Source: a virus | Lineage: Duplodnaviria > Caudoviricetes | DNA length: 64,000 nucleotides | Virus record (IMG/VR): IMGVR_UViG_3300029288_004108 | Coordinates: 1-64,000 of that record | Reading direction: 5' to 3' (one strand) | Shown: piece after piece, positions 2,840-16,444 of the stretch | Layout: each line of letters starts with the position of its first letter | How positions within the stretch are numbered: the first letter of the stretch is position 1 | Notes under the pieces: model-generated | Seen by the model: only the letters and a program-made list of their open reading frames with translations | Databases searched by the model: none | Told to the model about the DNA's origin: nothing | Program-made: the position numbers and the translations under genes

Positions 2840-3387
2840 CAGAAGAAGCTTTACATGAGTTAATCAAAACTCAGATTTCAGAAATCGGTGATAGTCCCGA
2901 TAGACAAGGATTAAAAGATACTCCGAAGCGGGTTATCCGTTCCTGGCAGGAACTCTATGCAGGGTACTGGGAGAAACCGGAAGATATCCTGACAGTATTT
3001 GATGCCGGTACGTATGATCAGATTGTCTTACTCAAGGACTGTGAACTCTACTCGATGTGTGAGCACCATATGTTACCATTCTTCGGGAAAGCACATATTG
3101 CTTACATCCCGAATGATAAGGTGATTGGAATATCAAAACTTGCCCGTTTGCTGGAAATATATTCCCGACGTCTGCAGATTCAGGAGAGGATCGGAGAGCA
3201 GGTTACAGAAGCTATTATGGATTATCTGGGAGCCAAAGGGGCTGCTTGTATTATAGAAGCGGAGCATATGTGTATGCGGATGAGGGGAGTGGGAAAACAG
3301 AATTCCACCATGGTCACATCATCCCTTAAAGGAGCTTTCTTTACTTCGTCGGCAGCCCGTTTGGAATTGATGGGATTAATAAAATGA
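2836..3387 (+). CDS. folE: GTP cyclohydrolase I
   Basis: [38 protein letters not shown]. Confidence 0.97.
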
Positions 3388-3545
3388 AAATTTACATGGC
3401 AGGGACTCCGGGTACGACTTCCCGGGAAAAGGCTTGGCAAACACTAATCATCAACCGTTTATTATCTTACTGGGACATCCAGGAAGATCAGTTCGGAGTT
3501 CCCTTTGCCTTCAAATTAATCAAATGGAAAAACAAAAAAAAGTAG
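3384..3545 (+). CDS. Mini-ORF 1 (53 aa) resembling the N-terminal module of DpdA/TGT-fold proteins
   Basis: Not in the ORF track. Hand translation: [57 protein letters not shown] overlap with the folE stop. Confidence 0.75.
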
Positions 3546-5413
3546 ACCTCTTTCTGGATTCAGGAGCTTTCTCCGCGTGGACGCAGAAGGCTACCATCGA
3601 CATTCAGGAATATATCCGATTCATAAAAGAGAATCAGGATGTAATTGAAGTATATGCAAACCTGGATGTCATTGGTATTGGAGGGAAACAACCAAACCGA
3701 TTGACTGCCGAAAAGACTTTGGAGAACCAAAGGATAATGGAAAAGGCTGGATTACATCCTATTCCATGTTTTCACTTTGGAGAACCAATGGAATTTCTTG
3801 ATATGTATGTAAAAGAGTATGATTACCTTGCTCTTGGTGTAGCTGGTAACTCCGGTACTCAACTCATTCCATGGTTGGATAAATGTTTCTCAGAGCATAT
3901 CTGTGATCAGGATGGAATGCCAAAGATAAAAATTCATGGGTTTGCCGTAACATCACTCAAAATTATGATGAGATATCCATGGTATTGTATGACGGAAGAA
4001 GATCATCAAGTACTAACCAAACAAGGATGGTGTAGTAGAAAAGATTTGAAAATTGGTGATCAAATTTTAGCTTTTAAAGATGGGATAAGTTTGTGGGAAG
4101 AAATATTAGAAATTCCATCATTTGATGTAATTAATACTCCTATAAAAGCTTTAAATTATAGAACTTTTTCGGCAAGAGTTACTGGGAATCATCGTTGGCG
4201 AGTAAAGTCAGCATATTCTGATAAATGGAAATGGAAAACAACAGATGAGTTAAATACAAATTGTTATATTCCAAGAGTTGGGAAATACCAAGCCCCCATT
4301 AATAAAATATATAGTGATGATTTTGTTAAAGCATTTGCTTGGTATTGGACAGAAGGGTGTATTAAAAAGAGAAAGAACTATAAATTACCGAGTATTACTA
4401 TTTCTCAATCAATATCTGCAAATCCTGAAAAAGTAGAGTTGATTAGGGAAATACTCAAAAATTGTAAAGAAAAGTTTTGTGAAGGTATAGCAGAGCGGTA
4501 TGATTTAGGAATTTATAGGAAAGAAATGACTTTTGAATTATATGGACCTCTTAGAGATTGGTTATTATCTATTTCTCCTAATAAGCAAATTCCAATGGAA
4601 TTTTTATTAAATTTAACGGAAGAACAATTACATATTTTTATAGATCACTCTATTTTAGCAGATGGTTCCAGAGGGGTTTTAAAAAGAAAGAAGAGTTTTG
4701 TAATTACTCAAGGCTCAGAAAAAAATATAGAAGAATTTCGAATTGCCTGTTTGCTTGCTGGTTACCCCACTTCTGTATATAAAAAAGGAGAAAAAGGATT
4801 AGAAATAGCTTCTTCCTCTGTAAATTATATTCATCCAAATCAGATGAAAGTAAATGAATTTTCATATACGGGAAAAATATGGTGTGTCCGTGTTCCCAGT
4901 GGGGCATTCTTTACTAAGTGTAATGGAGAAATATATGTTACTGGAAACTCAGTCGATAGTACCTCATGGGTTGTTACCGGAAGGATGGGATCAATATTTA
5001 TTCCAAGGAGGAAGAATGGTAATTGGGTATATGATGAAAACCCTTGGAAGATAGCAGTATCGAGTCGTTCCCCCGGAACTGAAGATGCTGGGAAACATAT
5101 CGGGACTCTATCAAAAGCTGAACGGGATGTATTCCTTCAATATATCCATGAAAAAGGGTATTCACTCGGCAAATCCGAATTCAAGAAAGTGCTTCAGACT
5201 CATCAGCTCTCCGATAATGAGCGATGGGTTGATAAGAAACCCACTGATAAATCTGCTCTCAGGGAATTGGAAGTGATTACAGAAGACGGATTATCAAACC
5301 GTTACCAATTAAGGGATGAGATAAATATTATGTATTTCCTTGATCTGGAGAAGAACTCCCCTGCGTGGCCTTGGGCATTCAAGTTGAATGATATGCAAAA
5401 AGGATTGTTATGA
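3524..5413 (+). CDS. dpdA: DNA 7-deazaguanine transglycosylase (DpdA, TGT-like) precursor containing an intein
   Basis: LFLDSGAFSAW, YANLDVIG, PIPCFHFGEP, KIHGFAV, YPWY|SVDSTSW after intein removal. Neighbours folE/queD/queE. ATG 3524 follows an AAATTAATCAA leader. Confidence 0.88.
   Translation: MEKQKKVDLFLDSGAFSAWTQKATIDIQEYIRFIKENQDVIEVYANLDVIGIGGKQPNRLTAEKTLENQRIMEKAGLHPIPCFHFGEPMEFLDMYVKEYDYLALGVAGNSGTQLIPWLDKCFSEHICDQDGMPKIKIHGFAVTSLKIMMRYPWYCMTEEDHQVLTKQGWCSRKDLKIGDQILAFKDGISLWEEILEIPSFDVINTPIKALNYRTFSARVTGNHRWRVKSAYSDKWKWKTTDELNTNCYIPRVGKYQAPINKIYSDDFVKAFAWYWTEGCIKKRKNYKLPSITISQSISANPEKVELIREILKNCKEKFCEGIAERYDLGIYRKEMTFELYGPLRDWLLSISPNKQIPMEFLLNLTEEQLHIFIDHSILADGSRGVLKRKKSFVITQGSEKNIEEFRIACLLAGYPTSVYKKGEKGLEIASSSVNYIHPNQMKVNEFSYTGKIWCVRVPSGAFFTKCNGEIYVTGNSVDSTSWVVTGRMGSIFIPRRKNGNWVYDENPWKIAVSSRSPGTEDAGKHIGTLSKAERDVFLQYIHEKGYSLGKSEFKKVLQTHQLSDNERWVDKKPTDKSALRELEVITEDGLSNRYQLRDEINIMYFLDLEKNSPAWPWAFKLNDMQKGLL
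3986..4948 (+). mobile_element. Intein (321 aa) with LAGLIDADG-type homing endonuclease motifs
   Basis: Starts CMTEEDHQVLTKQGW and ends WCVRVPSGAFF...VTGN followed by Ser. Internal FAWYWTEGC and SILADGS motifs. AT-richer than the flanks. Removal restores YPWYSVDSTSW. Confidence 0.93.
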
Positions 5414-5655
5414 AAATCTATTTGGAAGGACATGACCGGGGAGGATTTGAAGATGTCTATTATCCTATTCCCGGTTCCAATAAAGTTCTTATCCGGGAAC
5501 CAGCTGTTATTGCTCATTGGACTGATGGGAGAGTCCTATTTAGTTTCCTTTGGGATGGATTGAGGAGGAAGAATCAGGGAGGTAGAAGAGGTGATTTGCA
5601 TGGAAGAGAAATAAAATATGATTTGAGTGGTTCCTCATTAAAAAGAATGAAATGA
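5410..5655 (+). CDS. Mini-ORF 2 (81 aa), MKIYLEG...VLFSF paralog
   Basis: ATGA overlaps at both ends. Most divergent member of the set. Confidence 0.65.
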   Translation: MKIYLEGHDRGGFEDVYYPIPGSNKVLIREPAVIAHWTDGRVLFSFLWDGLRRKNQGGRRGDLHGREIKYDLSGSSLKRMK

Positions 5656-5828
5656 AAATATACATGGCAACCTGGTTATTCGATAGATCACTCGGGAGAA
5701 GCTCCACCAAACTCCGTTCCAGGAGAAGACTACTCAGTTATTATTTTCTAAGGGATCAGGGGATAACCAACGATCAGCTCAATACCTACTGTATATCCGG
5801 CAGGTTAGATACCAGGAAAATTAAATGA
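5652..5828 (+). CDS. Mini-ORF 3 (58 aa), MKIYMAT...RLLSYY paralog
   Basis: Not in the ORF track. MKIYMATWLFDRSLGRSSTKLRSRRRLLSYYFLRDQGITNDQLNTYCISGRLDTRKIK*. ATGA overlap. Confidence 0.7.
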   Translation: MKIYMATWLFDRSLGRSSTKLRSRRRLLSYYFLRDQGITNDQLNTYCISGRLDTRKIK

Positions 5829-5921
5829 CAAGGGGGTGTAATCAATTGTAATTATAAAATGATAATATCCCTTAATAATGATATCACAAATGATTACATC
5901 AAATAAAACCATCGAGTACCA

Positions 5922-6095
5922 ATGAGAATCTATCTGGCGGGTATCCCAAAAAGATATCATAGGGTGAACGGATTAAAATACAAAGTATTGTTTAGTTATT
6001 TTACAATCGTCTTCCCAACACAAAAGTGGGGAGCAAAAAGTGACTTTAGATATTATACTAATGAAAATATATCTGGCAGCGGTAGAACCACCTAA
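5922..6095 (+). CDS. Mini-ORF 4 (57 aa), MRIYLAG...VLFSY paralog
   Basis: Not in the ORF track. MRIYLAGIPKRYHRVNGLKYKVLFSYFTIVFPTQKWGAKSDFRYYTNENISGSGRTT*. Confidence 0.65.
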   Translation: MRIYLAGIPKRYHRVNGLKYKVLFSYFTIVFPTQKWGAKSDFRYYTNENISGSGRTT

Positions 6096-6228
6096 ACACC
6101 TGAGAATGATACCAAATTGTCTTCTCAGTTATTATGATATTGAAATTACTACCGTACCATTCAGAAAGGAAACATTCAAAACTATAAAATATGGAAATAA
6201 GCAAAAAAGAATTAGAACACGCTCTTGA
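6061..6228 (+). CDS. Mini-ORF 5 (55 aa), MKIYLAA...LLSYYDI paralog
   Basis: MKIYLAAVEPPKHLRMIPNCLLSYYDIEITTVPFRKETFKTIKYGNKQK. Shares LLSYxDI..VPF..FKxIK..NK.K with mini-ORF 1. Confidence 0.7.
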   Translation: MKIYLAAVEPPKHLRMIPNCLLSYYDIEITTVPFRKETFKTIKYGNKQKRIRTRS

Positions 6229-7198
6229 GATCGTCAAACCCGGGCTGGCAAACAAGGATATTGTAGAACAAGCTACATCATTTGCCTTTGTAAAAGGGAA
6301 GGTTGTTACCTATAATGATGAAATAAGTGTTTCTCATCCTGTTGCCGGGTTGGATATTGCGGGAGCGGTAGAGGCTGATATCCTTTACAAATTATTATCA
6401 AAAGCAAAATCTGATACCCTTAACCTGCAGGTGGAAGAAAATCAGATCACTCTCACTCAAGGAAAGATGCAAGCTGGTTTCTCCCTTCAGTCGGAGATAA
6501 AATTACCGATAAATGAAGAGGTGTCGGATATTGGTAAATGGAAGAAATTACCTGATAAATTTTCAGAGTTCCTTGAATTATCCATTCCATCAGCATCGAA
6601 GGATATGAGCAGACCGGTATTGACCTGTGTACATGTATCAAAGGACGGATATATGGAAGCATCTGATAGTTTTTGTCTTACCCGATGCACTTTCTCTGAT
6701 GATGTCCCGGTAAAGACATTCCTTATCCCTGCCACATCTGCTATTCAGGTCATCCGACTCTCCCCTACTCAGATTGCAGAAGGTAAAGGCTGGATTCATT
6801 TTAAGAATGAAGAGGAATCAGTAATATCTTGCAGGGTGCTGGCTGATAGTTTTCCGGATGCTTCTCATCTGTTGAGTGTGGAAGGTCATAAATTGATTCT
6901 ACCGGAAGCTATCCCGGAAGCATTGGATCGGGCGTCGATTGTAGCTAAGAGGGATCATCCACTTGAGGAAATGGTAACAGTGGAAATAAAAGATAAGACT
7001 CTTCTCATATCCTCCGACTCAAAGGAATCATGGTTCAAGGAAGAACTCAGGATAAATTTCAAGGAACATCTTAAATTCAATATCACTCCTTATCTTCTCC
7101 GGAAAATACTTACAAAGACTCGGGAATGTGTGGTGAGTGATAGCAAGTTAAAATTTGAAGGAGAAGGTTGGAAATATATAGCAGCTTTAAGATCATGA
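6191..7198 (+). CDS. dnaN: DNA polymerase III beta-like sliding clamp
   Basis: 335 aa. ELEHALEIVKP, SRPVLTCVHV, EASDSF, DSFPDAS, EALDRASIVA. Size and motif spacing fit a beta clamp. Lies in a replication cluster with a DnaX-like loader. Confidence 0.78.
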   Translation: MEISKKELEHALEIVKPGLANKDIVEQATSFAFVKGKVVTYNDEISVSHPVAGLDIAGAVEADILYKLLSKAKSDTLNLQVEENQITLTQGKMQAGFSLQSEIKLPINEEVSDIGKWKKLPDKFSEFLELSIPSASKDMSRPVLTCVHVSKDGYMEASDSFCLTRCTFSDDVPVKTFLIPATSAIQVIRLSPTQIAEGKGWIHFKNEEESVISCRVLADSFPDASHLLSVEGHKLILPEAIPEALDRASIVAKRDHPLEEMVTVEIKDKTLLISSDSKESWFKEELRINFKEHLKFNITPYLLRKILTKTRECVVSDSKLKFEGEGWKYIAALRS

Positions 7199-7860
7199 TA
7201 AAATTATTGAATATCGACTGCATGGAGTATATGTCGACAGTGCCGGACAAGTATTTTGATTTGGCTATTGTTGACCCGCCGTATGGTGCTGGGCAACATT
7301 TTAATTTCCGATTCGGGACAGGAGATGCAGTTTATAAAAATGAAGCACCTCGACAGCAGTATTTTAATGAACTATTCAGAATATCTAAAGAACAAATTGT
7401 ATGGGGAGGTAATTATTTTACTTATGCCTTACCAGTTAGTAGGTGTTGGATTAGTTGGTATAAAGGACAACCAATAAATTCCTTTTCAGATTTTGAATTG
7501 GCATGGACTTCATTTAATGCAACAAGTAAAGCCGTTAAAATTGAATCCTATGGCTTTAATCACACAGATAAGAAGCAAACTGGAAAAAGTACCATCCATC
7601 CCACACAAAAGCCTATTAAACTTTATAAATGGCTTTTAAAGAACTATTCCAAACCAACAGACAAGATTATCGACACTCATTTAGGCAGTGGTAGTTCCGC
7701 AATAGCTTGTTATGACTTTGATATTTCTGAATTTGTAGGATGTGAGATTGATAAGGAATATTATGATGCTGCAGTTAAGAGATTGGAAGAACATAAGAAA
7801 TTGCCAAAACCCTTTTTCAAAGAAACTTTTAATAATCCTCAACAAGATAAATTGATATAA
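7195..7860 (+). CDS. DNA amino-methyltransferase (N6-adenine/N4-cytosine, beta class)
   Basis: DLAIVDPPYG, IHPTQKP, DTHLGSGS, GCEID. ATG 7195 overlaps the clamp stop. Confidence 0.93.
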   Translation: MIKLLNIDCMEYMSTVPDKYFDLAIVDPPYGAGQHFNFRFGTGDAVYKNEAPRQQYFNELFRISKEQIVWGGNYFTYALPVSRCWISWYKGQPINSFSDFELAWTSFNATSKAVKIESYGFNHTDKKQTGKSTIHPTQKPIKLYKWLLKNYSKPTDKIIDTHLGSGSSAIACYDFDISEFVGCEIDKEYYDAAVKRLEEHKKLPKPFFKETFNNPQQDKLI

Positions 7861-9110
7861 TGGAAGGATTTTTTACAAAAAAGGAAACGGAATCAATTTC
7901 AAGACCCGATGGAAAGACCCGGACGTGTTTTTCCTGTGGATTACATCGTGATTGCCAATCACCAAAGATGCAACCATTTGGCAATTTCAAAAAAGGTATT
8001 ATGAATATTGGGGAAGCTCCCGGTGAGATGGAGGATAAGTCAGGTAAACCTTTCCAAGGAAAGACCGGGAGACTTCTTCAAAAAGTATATTCAGAACTCA
8101 ATATTGATTTATTTGAGGACTGTATAAATATTAATGCTGTCCTTTGTCGTCCGATGGATCAAAATGGAAATAATAGGGCACCGGAGAATTATGAAATTGA
8201 ATGCTGCCGGCAGACTATCCTTCGGTGGATTAATGAATATAAACCAAAGGTAATTATCCTACTGGGAAATGTAGCTGTATATTCCCTGATTGGTCATCGT
8301 TGGAAAAAGGATTTAGGAGGAATTACTAAGTGGCGTGGATGGACTATTCCCGATCAGGATTTCTCAGCATGGATTTGTCCGACATTCCACCCGAGTTTTG
8401 TAGAACGATCGGAGACAGCCGATGTAATGACAATTTGGAAATCTGATCTACTCCAAGCTTTTAAATTGCTGGAGGAAGGGGAATATCAGGGAAAGAAATT
8501 CCTCCTTCATCCTTTCCCAAAGATTAAGGAACCAAATATTGATTTCATAGAGGACTTATCTCCACTCGATCAGATTCAATCCGGAGAGGTAACTATTGAT
8601 TATGAAACAACCGGTATAAAACCACATGCTGTAGGACATAAGATAGTATGTTGTGCTGTGGCGGACTCTCCAGATCATGCTTTTGTATTTCCCATTCCTG
8701 CCTTACCCAAACAACGGGAACCACTCCGGCGACTTCTCCGGGATCCACATGTTGGAAAGATTGCTCAGAATATGAAATATGAGCATGCCTGGTCGTTAGT
8801 CATCCTAAAAACAGAAGTACAAAACTGGATATGGGACACTATGCTCATGTCACATATTTTGGATAACCGACCGGGGGTGACCGGATTAAAATTTCAGGTC
8901 TATGTTCAGTTTGGGGAAGTGGATTATGCTTCACAAATATCACCTTATCTTCAATCAAAGGATTCCTCAAGTGCTAATTCCATAAACCGGATATATGAAC
9001 TATTGGCTAAACCCGGAGGATTACAGATGCTGATGAAGTACTGTGCTCTGGATGCTGTATATGAATATCGACTTGCAAAGAAACAACAATCTGATCTTTT
9101 ACCATTTTAA
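7860..9110 (+). CDS. Family-A DNA polymerase N-terminal subunit: family-4 UDG-like domain plus 3'-5' exonuclease
   Basis: CFSCGLHRDC, IGEAPGEMED, PFQGKTG, PTFHPS (UDG4). IDYETTG, QNMKYE, WDTML, YCALDA (ExoI-III). Confidence 0.88.
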   Translation: MEGFFTKKETESISRPDGKTRTCFSCGLHRDCQSPKMQPFGNFKKGIMNIGEAPGEMEDKSGKPFQGKTGRLLQKVYSELNIDLFEDCININAVLCRPMDQNGNNRAPENYEIECCRQTILRWINEYKPKVIILLGNVAVYSLIGHRWKKDLGGITKWRGWTIPDQDFSAWICPTFHPSFVERSETADVMTIWKSDLLQAFKLLEEGEYQGKKFLLHPFPKIKEPNIDFIEDLSPLDQIQSGEVTIDYETTGIKPHAVGHKIVCCAVADSPDHAFVFPIPALPKQREPLRRLLRDPHVGKIAQNMKYEHAWSLVILKTEVQNWIWDTMLMSHILDNRPGVTGLKFQVYVQFGEVDYASQISPYLQSKDSSSANSINRIYELLAKPGGLQMLMKYCALDAVYEYRLAKKQQSDLLPF

Positions 9111-9122
9111 ACATTAATCAAA

Positions 9123-9443
9123 ATGAACCCAACACTTATTCTTATTGTAGGAGCATTGGCAATGATAGTCATTCTTATCGGGGTACTATCTGCTATCGGA
9201 CTATCCAGAATGGATCGTTACCGGCAGGATATTCGTTTTATTGAAACTGTTGTAGAGCACTGGATCATCTCTCAAAACAATTATTCTACCATTGTCCGAC
9301 TGTTTGCAGATATAGAGAGAAATGATGTAGATCCTGAAAGAACAAATAAAGCTTGGAATAGGTTTATCACCCGTTTCCAGGATTTTCATACTTACACTCC
9401 TCAGGAAGTAAAAGAAGAAATACTAACCATAAATCAAAACTAA
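9123..9443 (+). CDS. Hypothetical protein with an N-terminal transmembrane helix
   Basis: Hydrophobic LILIVGALAMIVILIGVLSAIGL. ATTAATCAAAATG leader. Confidence 0.7.
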   Translation: MNPTLILIVGALAMIVILIGVLSAIGLSRMDRYRQDIRFIETVVEHWIISQNNYSTIVRLFADIERNDVDPERTNKAWNRFITRFQDFHTYTPQEVKEEILTINQN

Positions 9444-9444
9444 T

Positions 9445-9852
9445 ATGAAAAAATTATTTGTAATTCTATTCTTGCCAATGACACTCTCCTGTTTTGCACC
9501 GAGTTTGCCAGGAGAGTTTGTATTGGTCCCTGAGAGAATCAATCCGTTTGAAAAATTACTTGAAGCAGTAATTATAACTGAAAGCAATGGAAATCTACTT
9601 GCTTATAATGAGAAGGAGGAAGCCGTGGGATGTTTGCAAATCCGACAATGTCGGGTAGATCATTTTAACCAGCTATCCGGGAAATCATATACTCTTCAAG
9701 ATATGTATGATTACAATAAAGCAGTAGAAGTATTTATGTTGTTTGCTCAACGATTACAGGATCCAGAGAAGATTGTAAAGCGATGGAATGGAAGTGGTCC
9801 GATGACAACAGTATATTGGAATAAGGTAAAAATCATTTTAAAAAGAGAATAA
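9445..9852 (+). CDS. Lysozyme/lytic-transglycosylase-like protein with a signal or lipoprotein N-terminus
   Basis: MKKLFVILFLPMTLSC, AVIITESNG (catalytic Glu-type), AVGCLQI, RWNGSG. Confidence 0.7.
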   Translation: MKKLFVILFLPMTLSCFAPSLPGEFVLVPERINPFEKLLEAVIITESNGNLLAYNEKEEAVGCLQIRQCRVDHFNQLSGKSYTLQDMYDYNKAVEVFMLFAQRLQDPEKIVKRWNGSGPMTTVYWNKVKIILKRE

Positions 9853-9854
9853 AT

Positions 9855-10139
9855 ATGATAATTCGTGAAACAATAAGAACCGCTCGGAAACAATATGATT
9901 GTGATGCTTCCGAGTGGATTACTAATTATGGTAGCTTATCTACAATAATGGAGGAGTTAAAAATGCCTTTTTCTGATCGCAGGAAATTGGTAATAGCCCA
10001 TCAAGAAAGATATAAGATATACCCCGGAACCAAGTATATAGAACAAATAGGGACTTTTGAAGGTGATTTTTTTCATGTAAGGGGGAGGATTGATATTATA
10101 GAAATATGTAGGAAGTATAATTTATTTTATGAGGAGTAA
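9855..10139 (+). CDS. Hypothetical protein
   Basis: Tightly packed ORF, 94 aa. Confidence 0.6.
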   Translation: MIIRETIRTARKQYDCDASEWITNYGSLSTIMEELKMPFSDRRKLVIAHQERYKIYPGTKYIEQIGTFEGDFFHVRGRIDIIEICRKYNLFYEE

Positions 10140-10151
10140 AAATAAATAAAT

Positions 10152-10406
10152 ATGACAAAACAAGAATGGTTTAAGTTGTTTGATGATACCAAAGAGAACT
10201 TCAAATGGTTCTTTGATGAATATGGGTATGACTGGAATGAGCTAATGAAATATCGGGAAGAAGAAAATCAAGACAAAATGTATTCCTATATGAATACTGT
10301 TTGGTATGAATTACCAGGTAATATATTCAATATAATGAGGACGCCAAAAGGATGGGGTGACTTTCTTAATCTATTAGAGGAATATGCAGAACAATCCACG
10401 GACTGA
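10152..10406 (+). CDS. Hypothetical protein
   Basis: 84 aa, A-rich leader, overlaps the polymerase start. Confidence 0.6.
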   Translation: MTKQEWFKLFDDTKENFKWFFDEYGYDWNELMKYREEENQDKMYSYMNTVWYELPGNIFNIMRTPKGWGDFLNLLEEYAEQSTD

Positions 10407-11766
10407 TGAAGCTTACCGGTTATTCCATGATGGAATACTTGCTCTATGCCGAGCGGAACAAGCAGGTATAAGGGTTGATGTGGAATATGTGGAAAATAAG
10501 AAAAATCATCTTACCCGGAAGATAGAACGTTTGGAACACCAGTTTCAGGACACAAAATTCTACCGTCATTGGCAACACTCCGTAGGTGGTAAGATAAATA
10601 TTCATTCCAACCAACAACTTGCTCATTTTCTCTACGATATTAAAAAGATCACACCACCAAAGGAAACTGTATCAGGTCAGGGAGCAACCGATGAAGATGC
10701 TTTGAAGACTCTTAATATTGAGGAATTAAATAATCTACTGGAAATACGAAAGCTAAAGAAAATCCGTGACACCTATCTGGATGCTTTTCTCCGGGAACAG
10801 GTTGATGGTTATATTCATCCTTTTTTTAACCTGCATCTGGTTAGGACGTTTCGTTCAAGTTCCGACTCACCGAACTTCCAGAATATTCCCAAAAGGGATG
10901 AGGAAGCAATGCAAATAATCCGGCAGGGACTTTTTCCACGTCCGGGTCATCAGCTCTTGGAAATCGACTACTCAGGATTGGAGGTCCGGATAGCGGCATG
11001 TTATCATAAGGATCCAACGATGCTCAAATACATAAATGATCCCTCATCTGATATGCACCGTGACATGGCTATCCAGATATTTAAACTTGACTCATTTGAT
11101 AAAAAGATTCATGGAGTCCTCCGACAAGCTGCAAAAAATGGATTTGTATTTCCTGAGTTCTATGGTGATTACTATGGAAACTGCGCAGAGAATATGGCTT
11201 GTGGATGGTTAAAGCTTCCAAATGGGACATGGAAACCAGGTCAGGGAATAGAACTAAATGGAATACATGCTTCCGATCATCTTATCAGTAAAGGAATAAA
11301 ATCACTCACTCAGTTTGAAAATCACGTTAAGAAGATTGAGGAGGATTTTTGGGGAAGACGTTTCCCGGAGTATGATGCTTGGAAAGCCCGCTGGTGGAAG
11401 ACTTATCAGAAATATGGTTATATTGATCTTCTAACCGGATTTCGTTGTAATGGAGTGATGGTGAGAAATGAATGCATTAATTCTCCTGTGCAGGGGGCTG
11501 CTTTCCATGTAAACCTTAAATCTTTTATCTTATTGGACAAAGCCATGAGAGAAGAAGGTTGGGATTCAAGACTCATTGGTCAGATTCATGACTCAATCGT
11601 TATTGATGTCCACCCGGAAGAATTAGATCATGTTGTAAAAACCGCCAGAAGGATAACCTGTGAAGATGTTCCGAAAGCTTGGAAATGGATCAATGTTCCT
11701 TTGGATATTGAAGCTGAAATCAGCCCGGTTGATGGGAGCTGGGCAGAAAAAAAGAAAATGGATTAA
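10384..11766 (+). CDS. polA: Family-A DNA polymerase catalytic subunit
   Basis: RSSSDSPNFQNIP, EIDYSGLEVRI (motif A), RQAAKNGFVFPEFYG (motif B), NSPVQGAA, GQIHDSI (motif C). Confidence 0.95.
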   Translation: MQNNPRTDEAYRLFHDGILALCRAEQAGIRVDVEYVENKKNHLTRKIERLEHQFQDTKFYRHWQHSVGGKINIHSNQQLAHFLYDIKKITPPKETVSGQGATDEDALKTLNIEELNNLLEIRKLKKIRDTYLDAFLREQVDGYIHPFFNLHLVRTFRSSSDSPNFQNIPKRDEEAMQIIRQGLFPRPGHQLLEIDYSGLEVRIAACYHKDPTMLKYINDPSSDMHRDMAIQIFKLDSFDKKIHGVLRQAAKNGFVFPEFYGDYYGNCAENMACGWLKLPNGTWKPGQGIELNGIHASDHLISKGIKSLTQFENHVKKIEEDFWGRRFPEYDAWKARWWKTYQKYGYIDLLTGFRCNGVMVRNECINSPVQGAAFHVNLKSFILLDKAMREEGWDSRLIGQIHDSIVIDVHPEELDHVVKTARRITCEDVPKAWKWINVPLDIEAEISPVDGSWAEKKKMD

Positions 11767-11826: not shown

Positions 11827-12738
11827 ATGTCACTATACTTAAAATATCGACCAACTGACCTTACTCAAATAAAGGGGAATTCTGATGTAATCAGTACCCT
11901 GGAAGGGATGATGGGGGACCGACATACTCTCCCTCATTCCTTCCTTTTGCATGGAGGAACGGGCTGTGGTAAGACTACGATTGCCCGGATAATAGCATCA
12001 AAGCTGGAATGTTCAGATATGGATCTGATGGAAGTCAATACTGCAGATTTCCGGGGAATTGATACAATAAGGGAGTTAATTAAAAATTCCCAGTTTATGC
12101 CTATCAAAGGAGATGTAAAGGTATGGATCATAGATGAAGCCCACAAGCTCACTAACGATGCACAAAATGCTTTGTTGAAAATTCTGGAAGATACCCCCAA
12201 GCATGTTTATTTTATTATCTGTACAACCGACCCTCAAAAACTCCTGCCGACAATAAAAGGTCGTTGTCAACAATTTCAACTAAAGACCTTATCGGAAACG
12301 GAAATGTATTCTCTTCTCCGTAGGGTAGTAAGGGATGAGAAGCAGGAATTACAGAAAGAAATTTATGATCAGATCATTCAGGATTCTCTTGGTCATCCAA
12401 GGAATGCCCTGCAGATACTGGAACAGGTTTTAAATGCCCCCGCTGATCGTCGCTTGGAGATAGCCCGGCAGACTGCTGAACGTCAATCACAGACAATTGA
12501 ACTCTGCCGGGCTTTACTCAATAAAGGTGGATGGAAACAAATTTCCACTATCCTGGAAGGATTAAAAGATCAGGAGCCGGAGGGTATCCGTAGGGCGGTT
12601 TTGGGCTATTGTCAGGCGGTTTTACTCAAGTCAGATAATACCCGGGCAGGATTAATCATGGAGGAGTTTATTTCTCCATTTTACGACTCTGGATTCCCCC
12701 AGTTAGTATTTGCATGTTATACCGTTTATAATAATTAA
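11827..12738 (+). CDS. dnaX: Clamp-loader AAA+ ATPase (DnaX gamma/tau-like)
   Basis: LYLKYRP, GGTGCGKTT, IIDEAHKLT, AQNALLKILED, TIKGRCQ. Confidence 0.92.
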   Translation: MSLYLKYRPTDLTQIKGNSDVISTLEGMMGDRHTLPHSFLLHGGTGCGKTTIARIIASKLECSDMDLMEVNTADFRGIDTIRELIKNSQFMPIKGDVKVWIIDEAHKLTNDAQNALLKILEDTPKHVYFIICTTDPQKLLPTIKGRCQQFQLKTLSETEMYSLLRRVVRDEKQELQKEIYDQIIQDSLGHPRNALQILEQVLNAPADRRLEIARQTAERQSQTIELCRALLNKGGWKQISTILEGLKDQEPEGIRRAVLGYCQAVLLKSDNTRAGLIMEEFISPFYDSGFPQLVFACYTVYNN

Positions 12739-13416: not shown

Positions 13417-14508
13417 ATGACAAAAGAAAGATCACATTCCTTTAAAGGAAAAATTGTATCAAGTGCTGAAAAGCAGAAGAAATCGTCCCGTGGGGGGAAG
13501 GCTTATATTGAACTACCAAAGGGTATTGAATTTTTAAAACTCCCCGATAATGCAAAATCGGTAAAATTGGATTTCCTCCCTTACATTATTACATCGGAAC
13601 ATCACCCGGAGAGAGATGATAAAGCAGGAGTAGCCCTTCCGGGAACTCCGTGGTACCGTCTTCCCGTTAAAGTCCATACCAAGGTAGGGGCTAATAATGA
13701 AGCAGTGATATGTCCGAGAGTGTTTGGAAAGAAATGTCCGATATGTGAATATCAGGTAAAAAGAATCAAGGAGGGAGCAGATAAGGAAGAATTCAAACTG
13801 TTGTATCCACAGGAGCGGAGTCTTTATATTGTAATCCCGGTAGGGGTAAAAGATTTGGAGGAAAAACCTTATGTTTGGGATATGAGTGATTTCCTATTCC
13901 AGGAAACATTGATTGAGGAACTCCAGGAGGATCCGGATAATGAAGATTTCTTTACTCTCGAGTATGGGAAAACAGCTAATCTTCGATTGAAATGGAAAGA
14001 GATTGGTAAGAGTAATTTCCCAGAGATTGTTAGCATTACATTTGAAGATCGGGAACCTTATGGGGAAGAGGTACTTGATGATATCCCTTCACTGGATGAT
14101 TGTATAAAGGTTTTACCGTATGCTGATCTGGAAGCAAAATTCTTTGATCTCGATAAGGAAGAAGATGCTGGGAAGATTGATGATAGGGAACCTGATGAGG
14201 GGGAATCAAAGAGAACAAAAAGGTATGGTCGTCAGGAGAAAAAAGAAGAACCTGAACCTGAACCAGATCCTAAGGAAGAAGCTCCTCCAAGACGTTCCCG
14301 TAATCGTACTCCCGAACCCGAACCAGAATCCGAACCTGAAGAGGAGAAACCGGCAAGGTCATCCCGGAAGGAAGAGAAATCTAAGGGATCCGATAAATGT
14401 CCCCACGGACATAAGTTCGGAGAGGATACTGATAAATTCCCAAAGGACTGTGATAAATGTCAGATTTGGGATGACTGTATAGATGTTTATGAGAAAAACA
14501 GAAAGTGA
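13417..14508 (+). CDS. Single-stranded DNA-binding protein (T4 gp32-like)
   Basis: LDFLPY, CPRVFGKKCPICE, long acidic/Pro linker, C-terminal Cys cluster. Located next to RecA. Confidence 0.72.
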   Translation: MTKERSHSFKGKIVSSAEKQKKSSRGGKAYIELPKGIEFLKLPDNAKSVKLDFLPYIITSEHHPERDDKAGVALPGTPWYRLPVKVHTKVGANNEAVICPRVFGKKCPICEYQVKRIKEGADKEEFKLLYPQERSLYIVIPVGVKDLEEKPYVWDMSDFLFQETLIEELQEDPDNEDFFTLEYGKTANLRLKWKEIGKSNFPEIVSITFEDREPYGEEVLDDIPSLDDCIKVLPYADLEAKFFDLDKEEDAGKIDDREPDEGESKRTKRYGRQEKKEEPEPEPDPKEEAPPRRSRNRTPEPEPESEPEEEKPARSSRKEEKSKGSDKCPHGHKFGEDTDKFPKDCDKCQIWDDCIDVYEKNRK

Positions 14509-14893: not shown

Positions 14894-15932
14894 CTCTCAG
14901 GTCAAGCGGAAAGTTACTCAGGAACCTTTCTCAATCCAACCTATACAAAAGGAGGAATATGATGGGAACTTTGGAAGAGTTATCAGCACCGGTAGTACAT
15001 TACTTGACCTTGCAATATCGGGCGGAAGGATTCGTGGTGGAGGAGTGCCAGGAGGGATTCTTGTTGAGATTTTCGGTCCCTCCGGCTCTGGAAAAACAGT
15101 CCTACTTAGTGAAATGGGAGGATCTGTCCAACGGCAAGGTGGAGACCTTATGTTCCATGATCCGGAAGCCCGATTAGATAAGACCTTTGCTAAGATGTTT
15201 GGAATGGAGGTAAAGGAGGAAAATTATAAACAACCTAATCGTGTCCCGGAAGTATTTAAAGCTGTCAGGGCTTGGGAACCAGAAGGAGATAAGAATGTTA
15301 TTCATGGAGTATTTGCCGATTCCCTTGCTGCACTCTCCACTACTCAGGAAATGGATAATGATGAAGGTGATAAGATGGGAATGCGTCGGGCAAAGGAATT
15401 CAGTGAAGAACTCCGTAAGACCTGCAGGATATTAAAACAGAATAATTACCTGATGGTCTGCTCAAACCAGGTAAGAATAAACATTGATGCCGGACCTTAC
15501 GGACAGAAATATACTACACCTGGTGGAGAAAGCATTGGTTTTTATTCCTCACTCCGTCTCCGTACACTCAAACCCGAGAAGATCAAACGTAAAATAAAGA
15601 TCAAAGGGAAAGAGGAAATGCGGGTAATTGGAGTAGAAACCCAGGTGGAGGTTTTTAAATCATCCATTTGGAAACCATATCATATAGCCCCTGTTACAAT
15701 ACTTTTCGATTATGGAGTGGACGACATTCGGGATTGTCTTCAGTACCTTAAAGATTATTACCAAACCCGGGTTTATACCATAGGTAATCAGACCTTATCC
15801 AATTCCATGGAAGAAGCTATTCAAATGGTAGAGCAGGATAATTTGGAAGAAGCCTTGCGGGAAGAGGTAATAAATGTATGGGAAGAAATTGAATCTAAGT
15901 TTAGATCAGAACGTAAACCAAAAAGACCATGA
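14862..15932 (+). CDS. recA: RecA/UvsX-like recombinase
   Basis: ISTGSTLLDLAISGG, EIFGPSGSGKT, FADSLAAL, NQVR, TPGG. Confidence 0.93.
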   Translation: MKRSRGEEPLSSQVKRKVTQEPFSIQPIQKEEYDGNFGRVISTGSTLLDLAISGGRIRGGGVPGGILVEIFGPSGSGKTVLLSEMGGSVQRQGGDLMFHDPEARLDKTFAKMFGMEVKEENYKQPNRVPEVFKAVRAWEPEGDKNVIHGVFADSLAALSTTQEMDNDEGDKMGMRRAKEFSEELRKTCRILKQNNYLMVCSNQVRINIDAGPYGQKYTTPGGESIGFYSSLRLRTLKPEKIKRKIKIKGKEEMRVIGVETQVEVFKSSIWKPYHIAPVTILFDYGVDDIRDCLQYLKDYYQTRVYTIGNQTLSNSMEEAIQMVEQDNLEEALREEVINVWEEIESKFRSERKPKRP

Positions 15933-16444
15933 TAATACTAACTAATGACCCGTCTTTTACTGCTTGGGGATATGCTGTACTGGATGATGGGGAAATAATA
16001 AAAACAGGATGTATTAAAACTGCTCCTGAACAAAAGAAACGGCGTATCCGGGCATCCGATGATCGGACTCGTAGAGCATCTGATATTGTACAGGAGTTAT
16101 TAAAACTCATTGATGAATATGATGTTGACTTTATGGTTAGTGAAGCTCCACATGGTTCCCAGAATGCTCAAGCAGCTATTATGATTGGTATGGTAGCAGG
16201 GATTACCACAGCTATAGCAGAATGTAAGAATATTCCCATTGAATACTATTCCGAGCAAGATTCAAAGAAAGCCGTATTAGGTAAACGAGCTGCTACAAAG
16301 GAGGATATGATTGAAGCTATTGATAAATTATATGATGTAGACTGGACAAAGGTAAAGTACATTGATGAAGCCGTAGCTGATGCTCTTGCCATACATTATG
16401 TTGCTACAAAACAATCACAGATGCTTAAAATGTTAAAGAGATGA
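15929..16444 (+). CDS. ruvC: RuvC-like Holliday junction resolvase
   Basis: ILTNDPSFTAWGYAV, MVSEAP, ATKEDM, EAVADALAI. Confidence 0.88.
   Translation: MIILTNDPSFTAWGYAVLDDGEIIKTGCIKTAPEQKKRRIRASDDRTRRASDIVQELLKLIDEYDVDFMVSEAPHGSQNAQAAIMIGMVAGITTAIAECKNIPIEYYSEQDSKKAVLGKRAATKEDMIEAIDKLYDVDWTKVKYIDEAVADALAIHYVATKQSQMLKMLKR

Follow-up and report, generated by a model that had tools for sequence, protein, structure and literature searches.

Candidate clamp-docking C-terminal tails on DNA-modification enzymes of an uncultured 7-deazaguanine phage

Clients of the bacterial beta sliding clamp, among them Pol II, Pol IV, the alpha and epsilon subunits of Pol III, Hda and MutS/MutL, bind it through a QL[SD]LF-type motif. 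Its consensus takes two forms, Q-phi-x-[LM]-[FL] and Q-phi-x-[LM]-x-[FL]; the Gln matters without being indispensable, and binding is helped by a terminal carboxylate (PMC11139829). That 2024 review does not mention methyltransferases; the string 'methyl' has 0 matches in it. Here we describe similar tails on DNA-modification enzymes encoded in positions 1 to 64,000 (64,000 nucleotides, the window) of the 77,650-base phage record IMGVR_UViG_3300029288_004108. The proteins are the DNA 7-deazaguanine transglycosylase DpdA, an N6/N4 DNA methyltransferase, the S-adenosylmethionine (SAM) methyltransferase of the deazaguanine operon and a RuvC-like resolvase, with a further tail on the exonuclease subunit of a split DNA polymerase. 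We put at roughly 60% the probability that these tails are clamp-docking peptides on DNA-modifying enzymes. Like the bacterial clients, the phage proteins combine a flexible terminal Gln-plus-hydrophobic motif with a free carboxylate, pentameric and hexameric forms occur in both, a DnaN-type clamp is present, and the proofreading subunit parallels epsilon. Unlike in bacteria, the candidate clients are DpdA, the two methyltransferases and the resolvase; the phage tails often have K, N or Q at position 2 and G at position 3, and the receptor is probably phage encoded.

Three other systems offer comparisons. The maintenance enzyme DNMT1 rides the PCNA clamp behind the replication fork (PMC9690074). 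The tethering logic of DNMT1-PCNA and UNG2-PCNA, which operates through a PCNA-interacting peptide (PIP) box, would be the same as that proposed here, but the clamp family and the motif differ, and the present case is a prokaryotic virus. In phages T4 and RB69, several proteins (gp43, gp33 and gp55) likewise share a C-terminal peptide that binds the clamp gp45; however, gp45 is a PCNA-type trimer and its motif is different, whereas the phage clamp described here is of the DnaN type, with three domains. The bacterial Dpd system (DpdA plus the ParB-like DpdB) and phage DpdA1-4 share with this locus the transglycosylase family, a FolE/QueD/QueE operon and post-replicative insertion (PMC10516641). 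Unlike bacterial Dpd, the locus has no DpdB, and dpdA is paired with a clamp gene; it is the tail-less DpdA of actinophages that lies beside a ParB-like gene. The main paper on DpdA subfamilies is silent on clamps and processivity factors (PMC10516641), and our literature searches found no paper tying DpdA or deazaguanine modification to a clamp, none joining adenine methyltransferase, DnaN and clamp binding, and none linking DpdA, the DNA methyltransferase, the SAM methyltransferase or the RuvC-like resolvase to a clamp.

The initial annotation had quoted four C termini, those of DpdA (QKGLL, 5396-5410), the DNA methyltransferase (QDKLI, 7843-7857), the exonuclease subunit (QSDLLPF, 9087-9107) and the SAM methyltransferase (SKRLL), and had noted that the first three genes flank the phage clamp gene. 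All four tails proved exact, with SKRLL at 2822-2836, as did the flanking arrangement around the clamp gene at 6191-7198; these features and all others given for the window are on the plus strand. Among about 85 open reading frames (ORFs; greedy calls over the whole window), only those three carry Q..[LMIVF][LIFM] within the last eight residues. Could three unrelated proteins end in Q-x-x-hydrophobic-hydrophobic by chance? The composition-based expectation is about one such ORF in 85, which makes three only mildly unusual, and conservation is therefore the real test.

We examined 120 homologues each of DpdA, the DNA methyltransferase and the exonuclease subunit (53-100% identity to the query). 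A relaxed motif, whose internal rate is 0.002-0.003 per residue, stood at the C-terminal end in 56/120 DpdA proteins (47%), 93/120 DNA methyltransferases (78%) and 33/120 exonuclease subunits (28%); tail conservation in the three families amounts to 50 to 80 times the internal background. Across orthologues, a check that the initial annotation had proposed, the terminal motifs are kept at the same position in all three families. The roughly 35 genes in the first 22 kb of the window were each set against homologues from 80 related IMG/VR loci. Only DpdA, the DNA methyltransferase and the SAM methyltransferase showed a conserved terminal [LIMF][FL], and no conserved terminal motif was found in the polymerase subunit, the clamp loader, the UvsX-like protein, the gp32-like or single-stranded DNA-binding protein (SSB)-like products or other neighbors across these 80 loci. 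The polymerase subunit tails of 57 homologues lacked the motif as well. Because tails are kept behind variable linkers in hundreds of homologues from five families, we consider chance resemblance ruled out by the conservation data, leaving it only a minute residual probability.

The dpdA gene (3524-5413; phrog_887, E 2.8e-48) belongs to the TGT-like family, has QueD, QueE and FolE upstream in its operon, and has 223 cultured-phage homologues annotated tgt or DpdA. Its C-extein (4949-5410) has 531 homologues and ends in the candidate docking peptide QKGLL, directly before the stop codon at 5411-5413. The family shows an invariant WPW-x-F-K, then four to six variable, often basic residues, and then a tail of one of two classes, Q[KN]G[LF]F* and GF[GSA]L*. 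DpdA proteins ending in [LMIF][FL] number 81/120, and remote members (35-60% identity) keep the tail architecture, with ends such as QRKLF, QKSLF, KGFGL and GFDL. When tails are sorted into x[LF]F* and [FL]x[LIF]*, 65 of the 70 unique ones fit one class or the other, and these classes mirror the pentameric and hexameric forms of the clamp motif. Homologue P0002 has no intein and shares the last five residues; its AlphaFold2 model is well ordered as far as the WPWAF segment, after which the final eight residues are coil, with a predicted local distance difference test (pLDDT) score of 63 against 93.5 overall. The flexible end of this homologue, as modeled, matches the expected look of a docking peptide.

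Window DpdA is interrupted by a 321-amino-acid intein (3986-4948; Cys ... Gly-Asn|Ser) inserted at YPWY|SVDSTSW. Most homologues are intein-free and about 300-360 amino acids long; a few of 629-718 amino acids also have an insert. Mini-ORFs at 3384-3545 and within 5410-6228 that begin MKIY(L/M)A resemble the N termini of DpdA1-type proteins (MKLYLAGIYT in a Stenotrophomonas phage, MNLFIAGLYT in BcepGomr, MKP(V/I)K(L/I)YFA in loci L046 and L078), and one DpdA-like subfamily of the clade ends instead with an LDILISYAY strand. This end and the mini-ORFs may reflect a permuted or split DpdA architecture.

The DNA methyltransferase (7195-7860; PF01555, phrog_67) belongs to a family with the textbook beta-clamp motif. 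The tail of the enzyme starts beyond the PF01555 match, and after the last helix of the methylase domain family members finish with Q[LQT]KLF* (QLKLF, QQKLF or QTKLF), the Gln being conserved at -5; 35/120 members are strict matches. This consensus is the canonical beta-clamp motif Q-phi-x-[LM]-[FL] (PMC11139829). Methyltransferases of small cultured Flavobacterium siphophages end in QQKLF* and QTKLF*. The window enzyme, with LPKPFF (7801-7818) followed by QDKLI, falls in a subgroup whose tails carry two tandem degenerate motifs and which includes homologues P0262, P0276, P0277, P0317 and L005. Its 22-residue tandem tail is common to a 60%-identical homologue (P0357), and its closest homologues (80-88% identity, 206-208 amino acids) end in HKMQTKLF instead. 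Judged by these sequences, the tail looks modular.

Two further families carry related ends. About two thirds of 25 unique tails from homologues of the SAM methyltransferase (1994-2839) are of the type KRLL, YKLL, QKGFDL, QKGFGF, NSFF or KKLF, the same motif vocabulary as in DpdA. The RuvC-like resolvase (15929-16444; phrog_159) ends in QSQMLKMLKR (16412-16441) and adds a tail to those listed by the initial annotation. In 20/24 unique homologue tails, [LMIF][KRQ][LMFIY][LMFIYT] occurs within the last ten residues; the family's near-terminal pattern is Q-S-P-[TM]-L-[KR]-[LM]-[LMF] (e.g., TLKLL, TLRLF), whose count in most other families is 0.

What would the receptor be? The product of 6191-7198 (335 amino acids; phrog_947) is a three-domain DnaN homologue and not a PCNA-type trimer clamp. 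A clade profile built from 54 clamps matches beta clamps in the PDB (E 1e-16), and the AlphaFold2 model (pLDDT 93.4) has E. coli and other bacterial beta clamps as its top Foldseek matches (template modeling [TM] score 0.77), and many of these structures contain a cleft-bound peptide. Pfam PF02768 scores only 21 bits on this protein, under its cutoff, and the PF02768 genome scan was therefore redone with the clamp profile and positive controls. In a sequence alignment, the putative equivalents of the E. coli cleft positions R152, L155, T172-L177 and P242 and of the C-terminal strand are kept in the 54 phage clamps. The phage residues so aligned are R/K141, L144, S158, D159, R162, Y329, L333 and R/K334, with C162 in the window clamp.

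The clamp gene accompanies dpdA across phages. Counting contigs with at least 3 kb of sequence past dpdA, and anchoring on DpdA rather than on the polymerase, we found a clamp gene on the same strand no more than 3 kb downstream in 66/67 viral contigs, at a median gap of 425 bp. The linkage holds whether the polymerase is a split PolA, a fused PolA or a DnaE-type Pol III alpha with a C-terminal domain like that of uracil-DNA glycosylase (UDG). Examples of the last type, with PHP and alpha domains, are L139:13880-17242, L150:8378-11650 and L164:11398-15513; the L164 copy contains an intein. The order FolE-DpdA-(small ORFs)-clamp-polymerase recurs in CAjan, PaMx25, RHEph06, BcepGomr and a Stenotrophomonas phage, in all five of which the clamp was confirmed by profile. 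Their DpdA proteins end in MELF, QELF, QRLF, QQGLFV and QMELF, respectively.

Hydrophobic or basic-hydrophobic C-terminal ends can be degrons. The tails might accordingly be protease-recognition tags, or intramolecular or oligomer contacts, that set lifetime or activity and are unrelated to replication, and the KRLL end of the SAM methyltransferase, which has no Gln, would suit such a role. However, only DNA-acting enzymes carry the motif, which has a conserved Gln at -5 and agrees canonically with the clamp motif; the tail follows a variable linker and is modeled at low confidence and unpacked; and dpdA-clamp synteny is tight. We regard this explanation as improbable.

Is the motif specific to phages that encode a clamp? 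This proposal was rejected. The clamp was undetected by profile in five cultured phages, three of the lambdoid type and two actinophages. The DpdA-like proteins of the three clamp-less temperate lambdoid-type phages end in QLQLAV, QLAFEV and QLGLSF, and that of Klebsiella phage RothD, whose genome lay outside the clamp scan, ends in QLAFEI; these four are hexamer-type motifs whose residues would suit the host clamp. The Flavobacterium siphophages mentioned above, likewise outside the clamp scan, also carry canonical motifs. Since the motif also occurs in clamp-less phages, it is not tied to a phage-encoded clamp, and it fits clamp docking generally.

Several observations, given in this and the next two paragraphs, weigh against clamp docking. 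The window's own tails depart from both strict forms, Q-phi-x-[LM]-[FL] and Q-phi-x-[LM]-x-[FL]. Position 2 is occupied by K in QKGLL and by D in QDKLI, which moreover closes with Ile; QSDLLPF can be fitted only as a 7-mer with a shifted Gln, or with LPF at positions 4 to 6 and no Gln. In addition, several other DpdA-like subfamilies encoded directly upstream of the same clamp have ordinary helix ends and no hydrophobic tail, so the tail is not obligatory for a clamp-adjacent DpdA. The tail is absent from DpdA of Cellulophaga phage phiSM (genome outside the clamp scan) and from DpdA of the two actinophages, Mycobacterium phage Bipper (L249) and Gordonia phage Sour (L251). The Bipper and Sour genes adjoin a ParB-like gene at the genome end, and by analogy with bacterial DpdA/DpdB this neighbor may be an alternative DNA-delivery partner. 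There is also the precedent of T4 alpha-glucosyltransferase, a phage DNA-modifying enzyme that was proposed to bind gp45 and to act with replication. With C-terminally tagged enzymes, this interaction was not reproduced (2025 preprint, 10.64898/2025.12.06.692756). The claim of the initial annotation that these enzymes are tethered to the clamp thus stands in part: it is upheld by the conserved terminal motifs, the canonical methyltransferase consensus, the DnaN-type clamp and the near-universal adjacency of dpdA and clamp, and it is weakened by the window's own tails, all three of which deviate from the strict consensus at position 2, by the tail-less DpdA-like subfamilies beside the same clamp and by the alternative reading of the exonuclease tail. 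The further suggestion of the initial annotation that host DNA is spared draws no support from these results.

Covariation between tails and clamp is equivocal. The exonuclease subunit has two tail classes, [IL]LPF and [ML]G[IL], and these covary with the F- and L-terminal classes of DpdA (15/5/2/7, Fisher p=0.014). Among the 25 clamp columns that best separate the groups, 8 lie in predefined cleft segments, against 3.0 expected (p=0.005), and among the top 40 class-separating columns 13 do (p=0.0002); cleft enrichment was absent from the highest-entropy clamp columns. Arbitrary clade splits of the clamp tree, however, place 2 to 7 of 25 columns in the cleft. Because these tree-split controls reach 7/25, phylogeny explains much of the signal, and the covariation is suggestive: it supports docking but is confounded by phylogeny.

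The tail of the UDG-like and 3'-5' exonuclease subunit of the split family-A polymerase (7860-9110; PF03167, PF01612, phrog_17) raises the strongest competing explanation, namely docking of the tails on some non-clamp partner. Specifically, [IL]LPF could insert into the polymerase subunit and so hold the split polymerase together; variants are that the exonuclease tail mimics an SSB tip or that the DpdA and methyltransferase tails bind another shared hub. The exonuclease family ends K-Q-[RQ]-x-[NDE]-[IL]-L-P-F, with terminal LPF in 106/120 members. LPF is confined to split forms: it is missing at the exonuclease/polymerase junction of three fused PolA relatives (L002, L060 and L071), which have a normal linker there. 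A plain linker inherited from a fused form was accordingly rejected as the origin of the whole tail; its Gln and one hydrophobic position go back to the fused form, and LPF is new in the split forms. The polymerase subunit, for its part, has no motif of its own.

The SSB C-terminal tip is DD[IL]PF, the tails of T7 gp2.5 and gp4 bind T7 polymerase, and Pol IV ends in LGL. In the exonuclease family LPF is near-invariant and often has D, E or N before it (YDDLPF, YDFLPF, FDELPF), and the CAjan helicase (L083:2574-4550) ends in VEDPDYVPF, which is SSB-tip-like and resembles the exonuclease LPF. However, the window tail has a single acidic residue, and the [ML]G[IL] class is not SSB-like and resembles the Pol IV end. 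Further points against a non-clamp partner are the canonical QLKLF of the methyltransferases, which points to the beta clamp, the covariation of exonuclease and DpdA classes, which suggests one receptor, and the overlap of clamp and exonuclease genes in most loci. We consider docking on a non-clamp partner unlikely for the tails as a set. For the exonuclease tail itself, the absence of LPF from fused PolA and the likeness to the SSB tip mean that it may join the two polymerase subunits, and by its sequence it may dock on the polymerase subunit rather than on the clamp; the tail is ambiguous between the two.

If the tails are clamp-docking peptides, a flexible, often basic linker would present the Gln, two hydrophobic or aromatic residues and the free carboxylate, which together would occupy the hydrophobic cleft that a DnaN-type clamp forms between its domains II and III. 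The likely receptor would be the phage clamp (6191-7198), loaded by the phage clamp loader (11827-12738), and possibly the host clamp too. Clamps that stay behind on freshly copied DNA would carry four enzymes, DpdA, the SAM methyltransferase, the N6/N4 DNA methyltransferase and the RuvC-like resolvase, and this would concentrate base exchange, methylation and junction resolution behind the fork, as for DNMT1 on PCNA. For the exonuclease subunit, whose analogue would be Pol III epsilon, placement on the clamp is less firm. The initial annotation had proposed that modification is coupled to replication, and we infer that it probably is.

A broader proposal is more tentative, and we hold it at a little under even confidence: clamp tethering could be a general delivery route for phage DNA-modifying enzymes. 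A tool belt on the single cleft of the phage clamp could then combine base exchange, tailoring methylation, adenine or cytosine methylation, proofreading and junction resolution. For DpdA, the DNA-loading partner would be a clamp, of the phage or of the host, instead of the ParB-like DpdB, and the near-obligate dpdA-clamp pair would be explained because the clamp serves as that partner. Small N6/N4 DNA methyltransferases that end in QLKLF form a large family in phages and prophages, and they could be the prokaryotic counterparts of DNMT1-PCNA.

If true, clamp docking would answer how the DpdA of phages gains efficient access to double-stranded DNA when DpdB is missing, and it could explain differences in modification level among DpdA subfamilies. 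DpdA3 and DpdA4 could not be made active in E. coli (PMC10516641), and clamp docking could account for such DpdA failures in heterologous E. coli assays that lack the phage clamp. C-terminal tags would mask the motif, and reconstituted modification may depend on coexpression of the clamp and its loader. The beta-clamp clients, so far few, would be extended by DNA methyltransferases, a transglycosylase and a resolvase.

Early and replication genes, all on the plus strand, make up a module in the first 22 kb of the window. The clade is uncultured, and a megablast search with the region returned zero matches among cultured phages, where the record has no near relative. The gene order is QueD, QueE, SAM methyltransferase, FolE, DpdA, several mini-ORFs, clamp, N6/N4 DNA methyltransferase, UDG-like/exonuclease subunit, four small genes, polymerase subunit, clamp loader and recombination genes including the RuvC-like resolvase. 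Clamp, methyltransferase and exonuclease genes are translationally coupled, by an ATGA overlap at 7195-7198 (the methyltransferase ATG lies on the clamp stop) and by TAATG at 7858-7862. The polymerase subunit of the split PolA (10384-11766; PF00476) has no C-terminal motif, and the loader (11827-12738) is a gamma/tau-like AAA+ subunit (PF13177, E 3e-29).

Between the exonuclease and polymerase halves, 9123-10406 encodes a membrane protein, a soluble lytic transglycosylase (SLT)-like protein with a signal-like N terminus, a phrog_13613 protein and an 84-amino-acid ORF. A gp32-like SSB candidate at 13417-14508, for which no PHROG match was found, combines a zinc motif (CPICE) with a long stretch rich in Pro and acidic residues and, at the C terminus, a second Cys/His cluster. 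In a distant relative (L002:2306-5883 and 6590-8809), a gene for an HNH-type endonuclease and a duplicated UDG fragment of N-terminal type precede a fused UDG-exonuclease-PolA of 897 amino acids, and the clamp-loader gene (739 amino acids) contains a large insert that is probably an intein.

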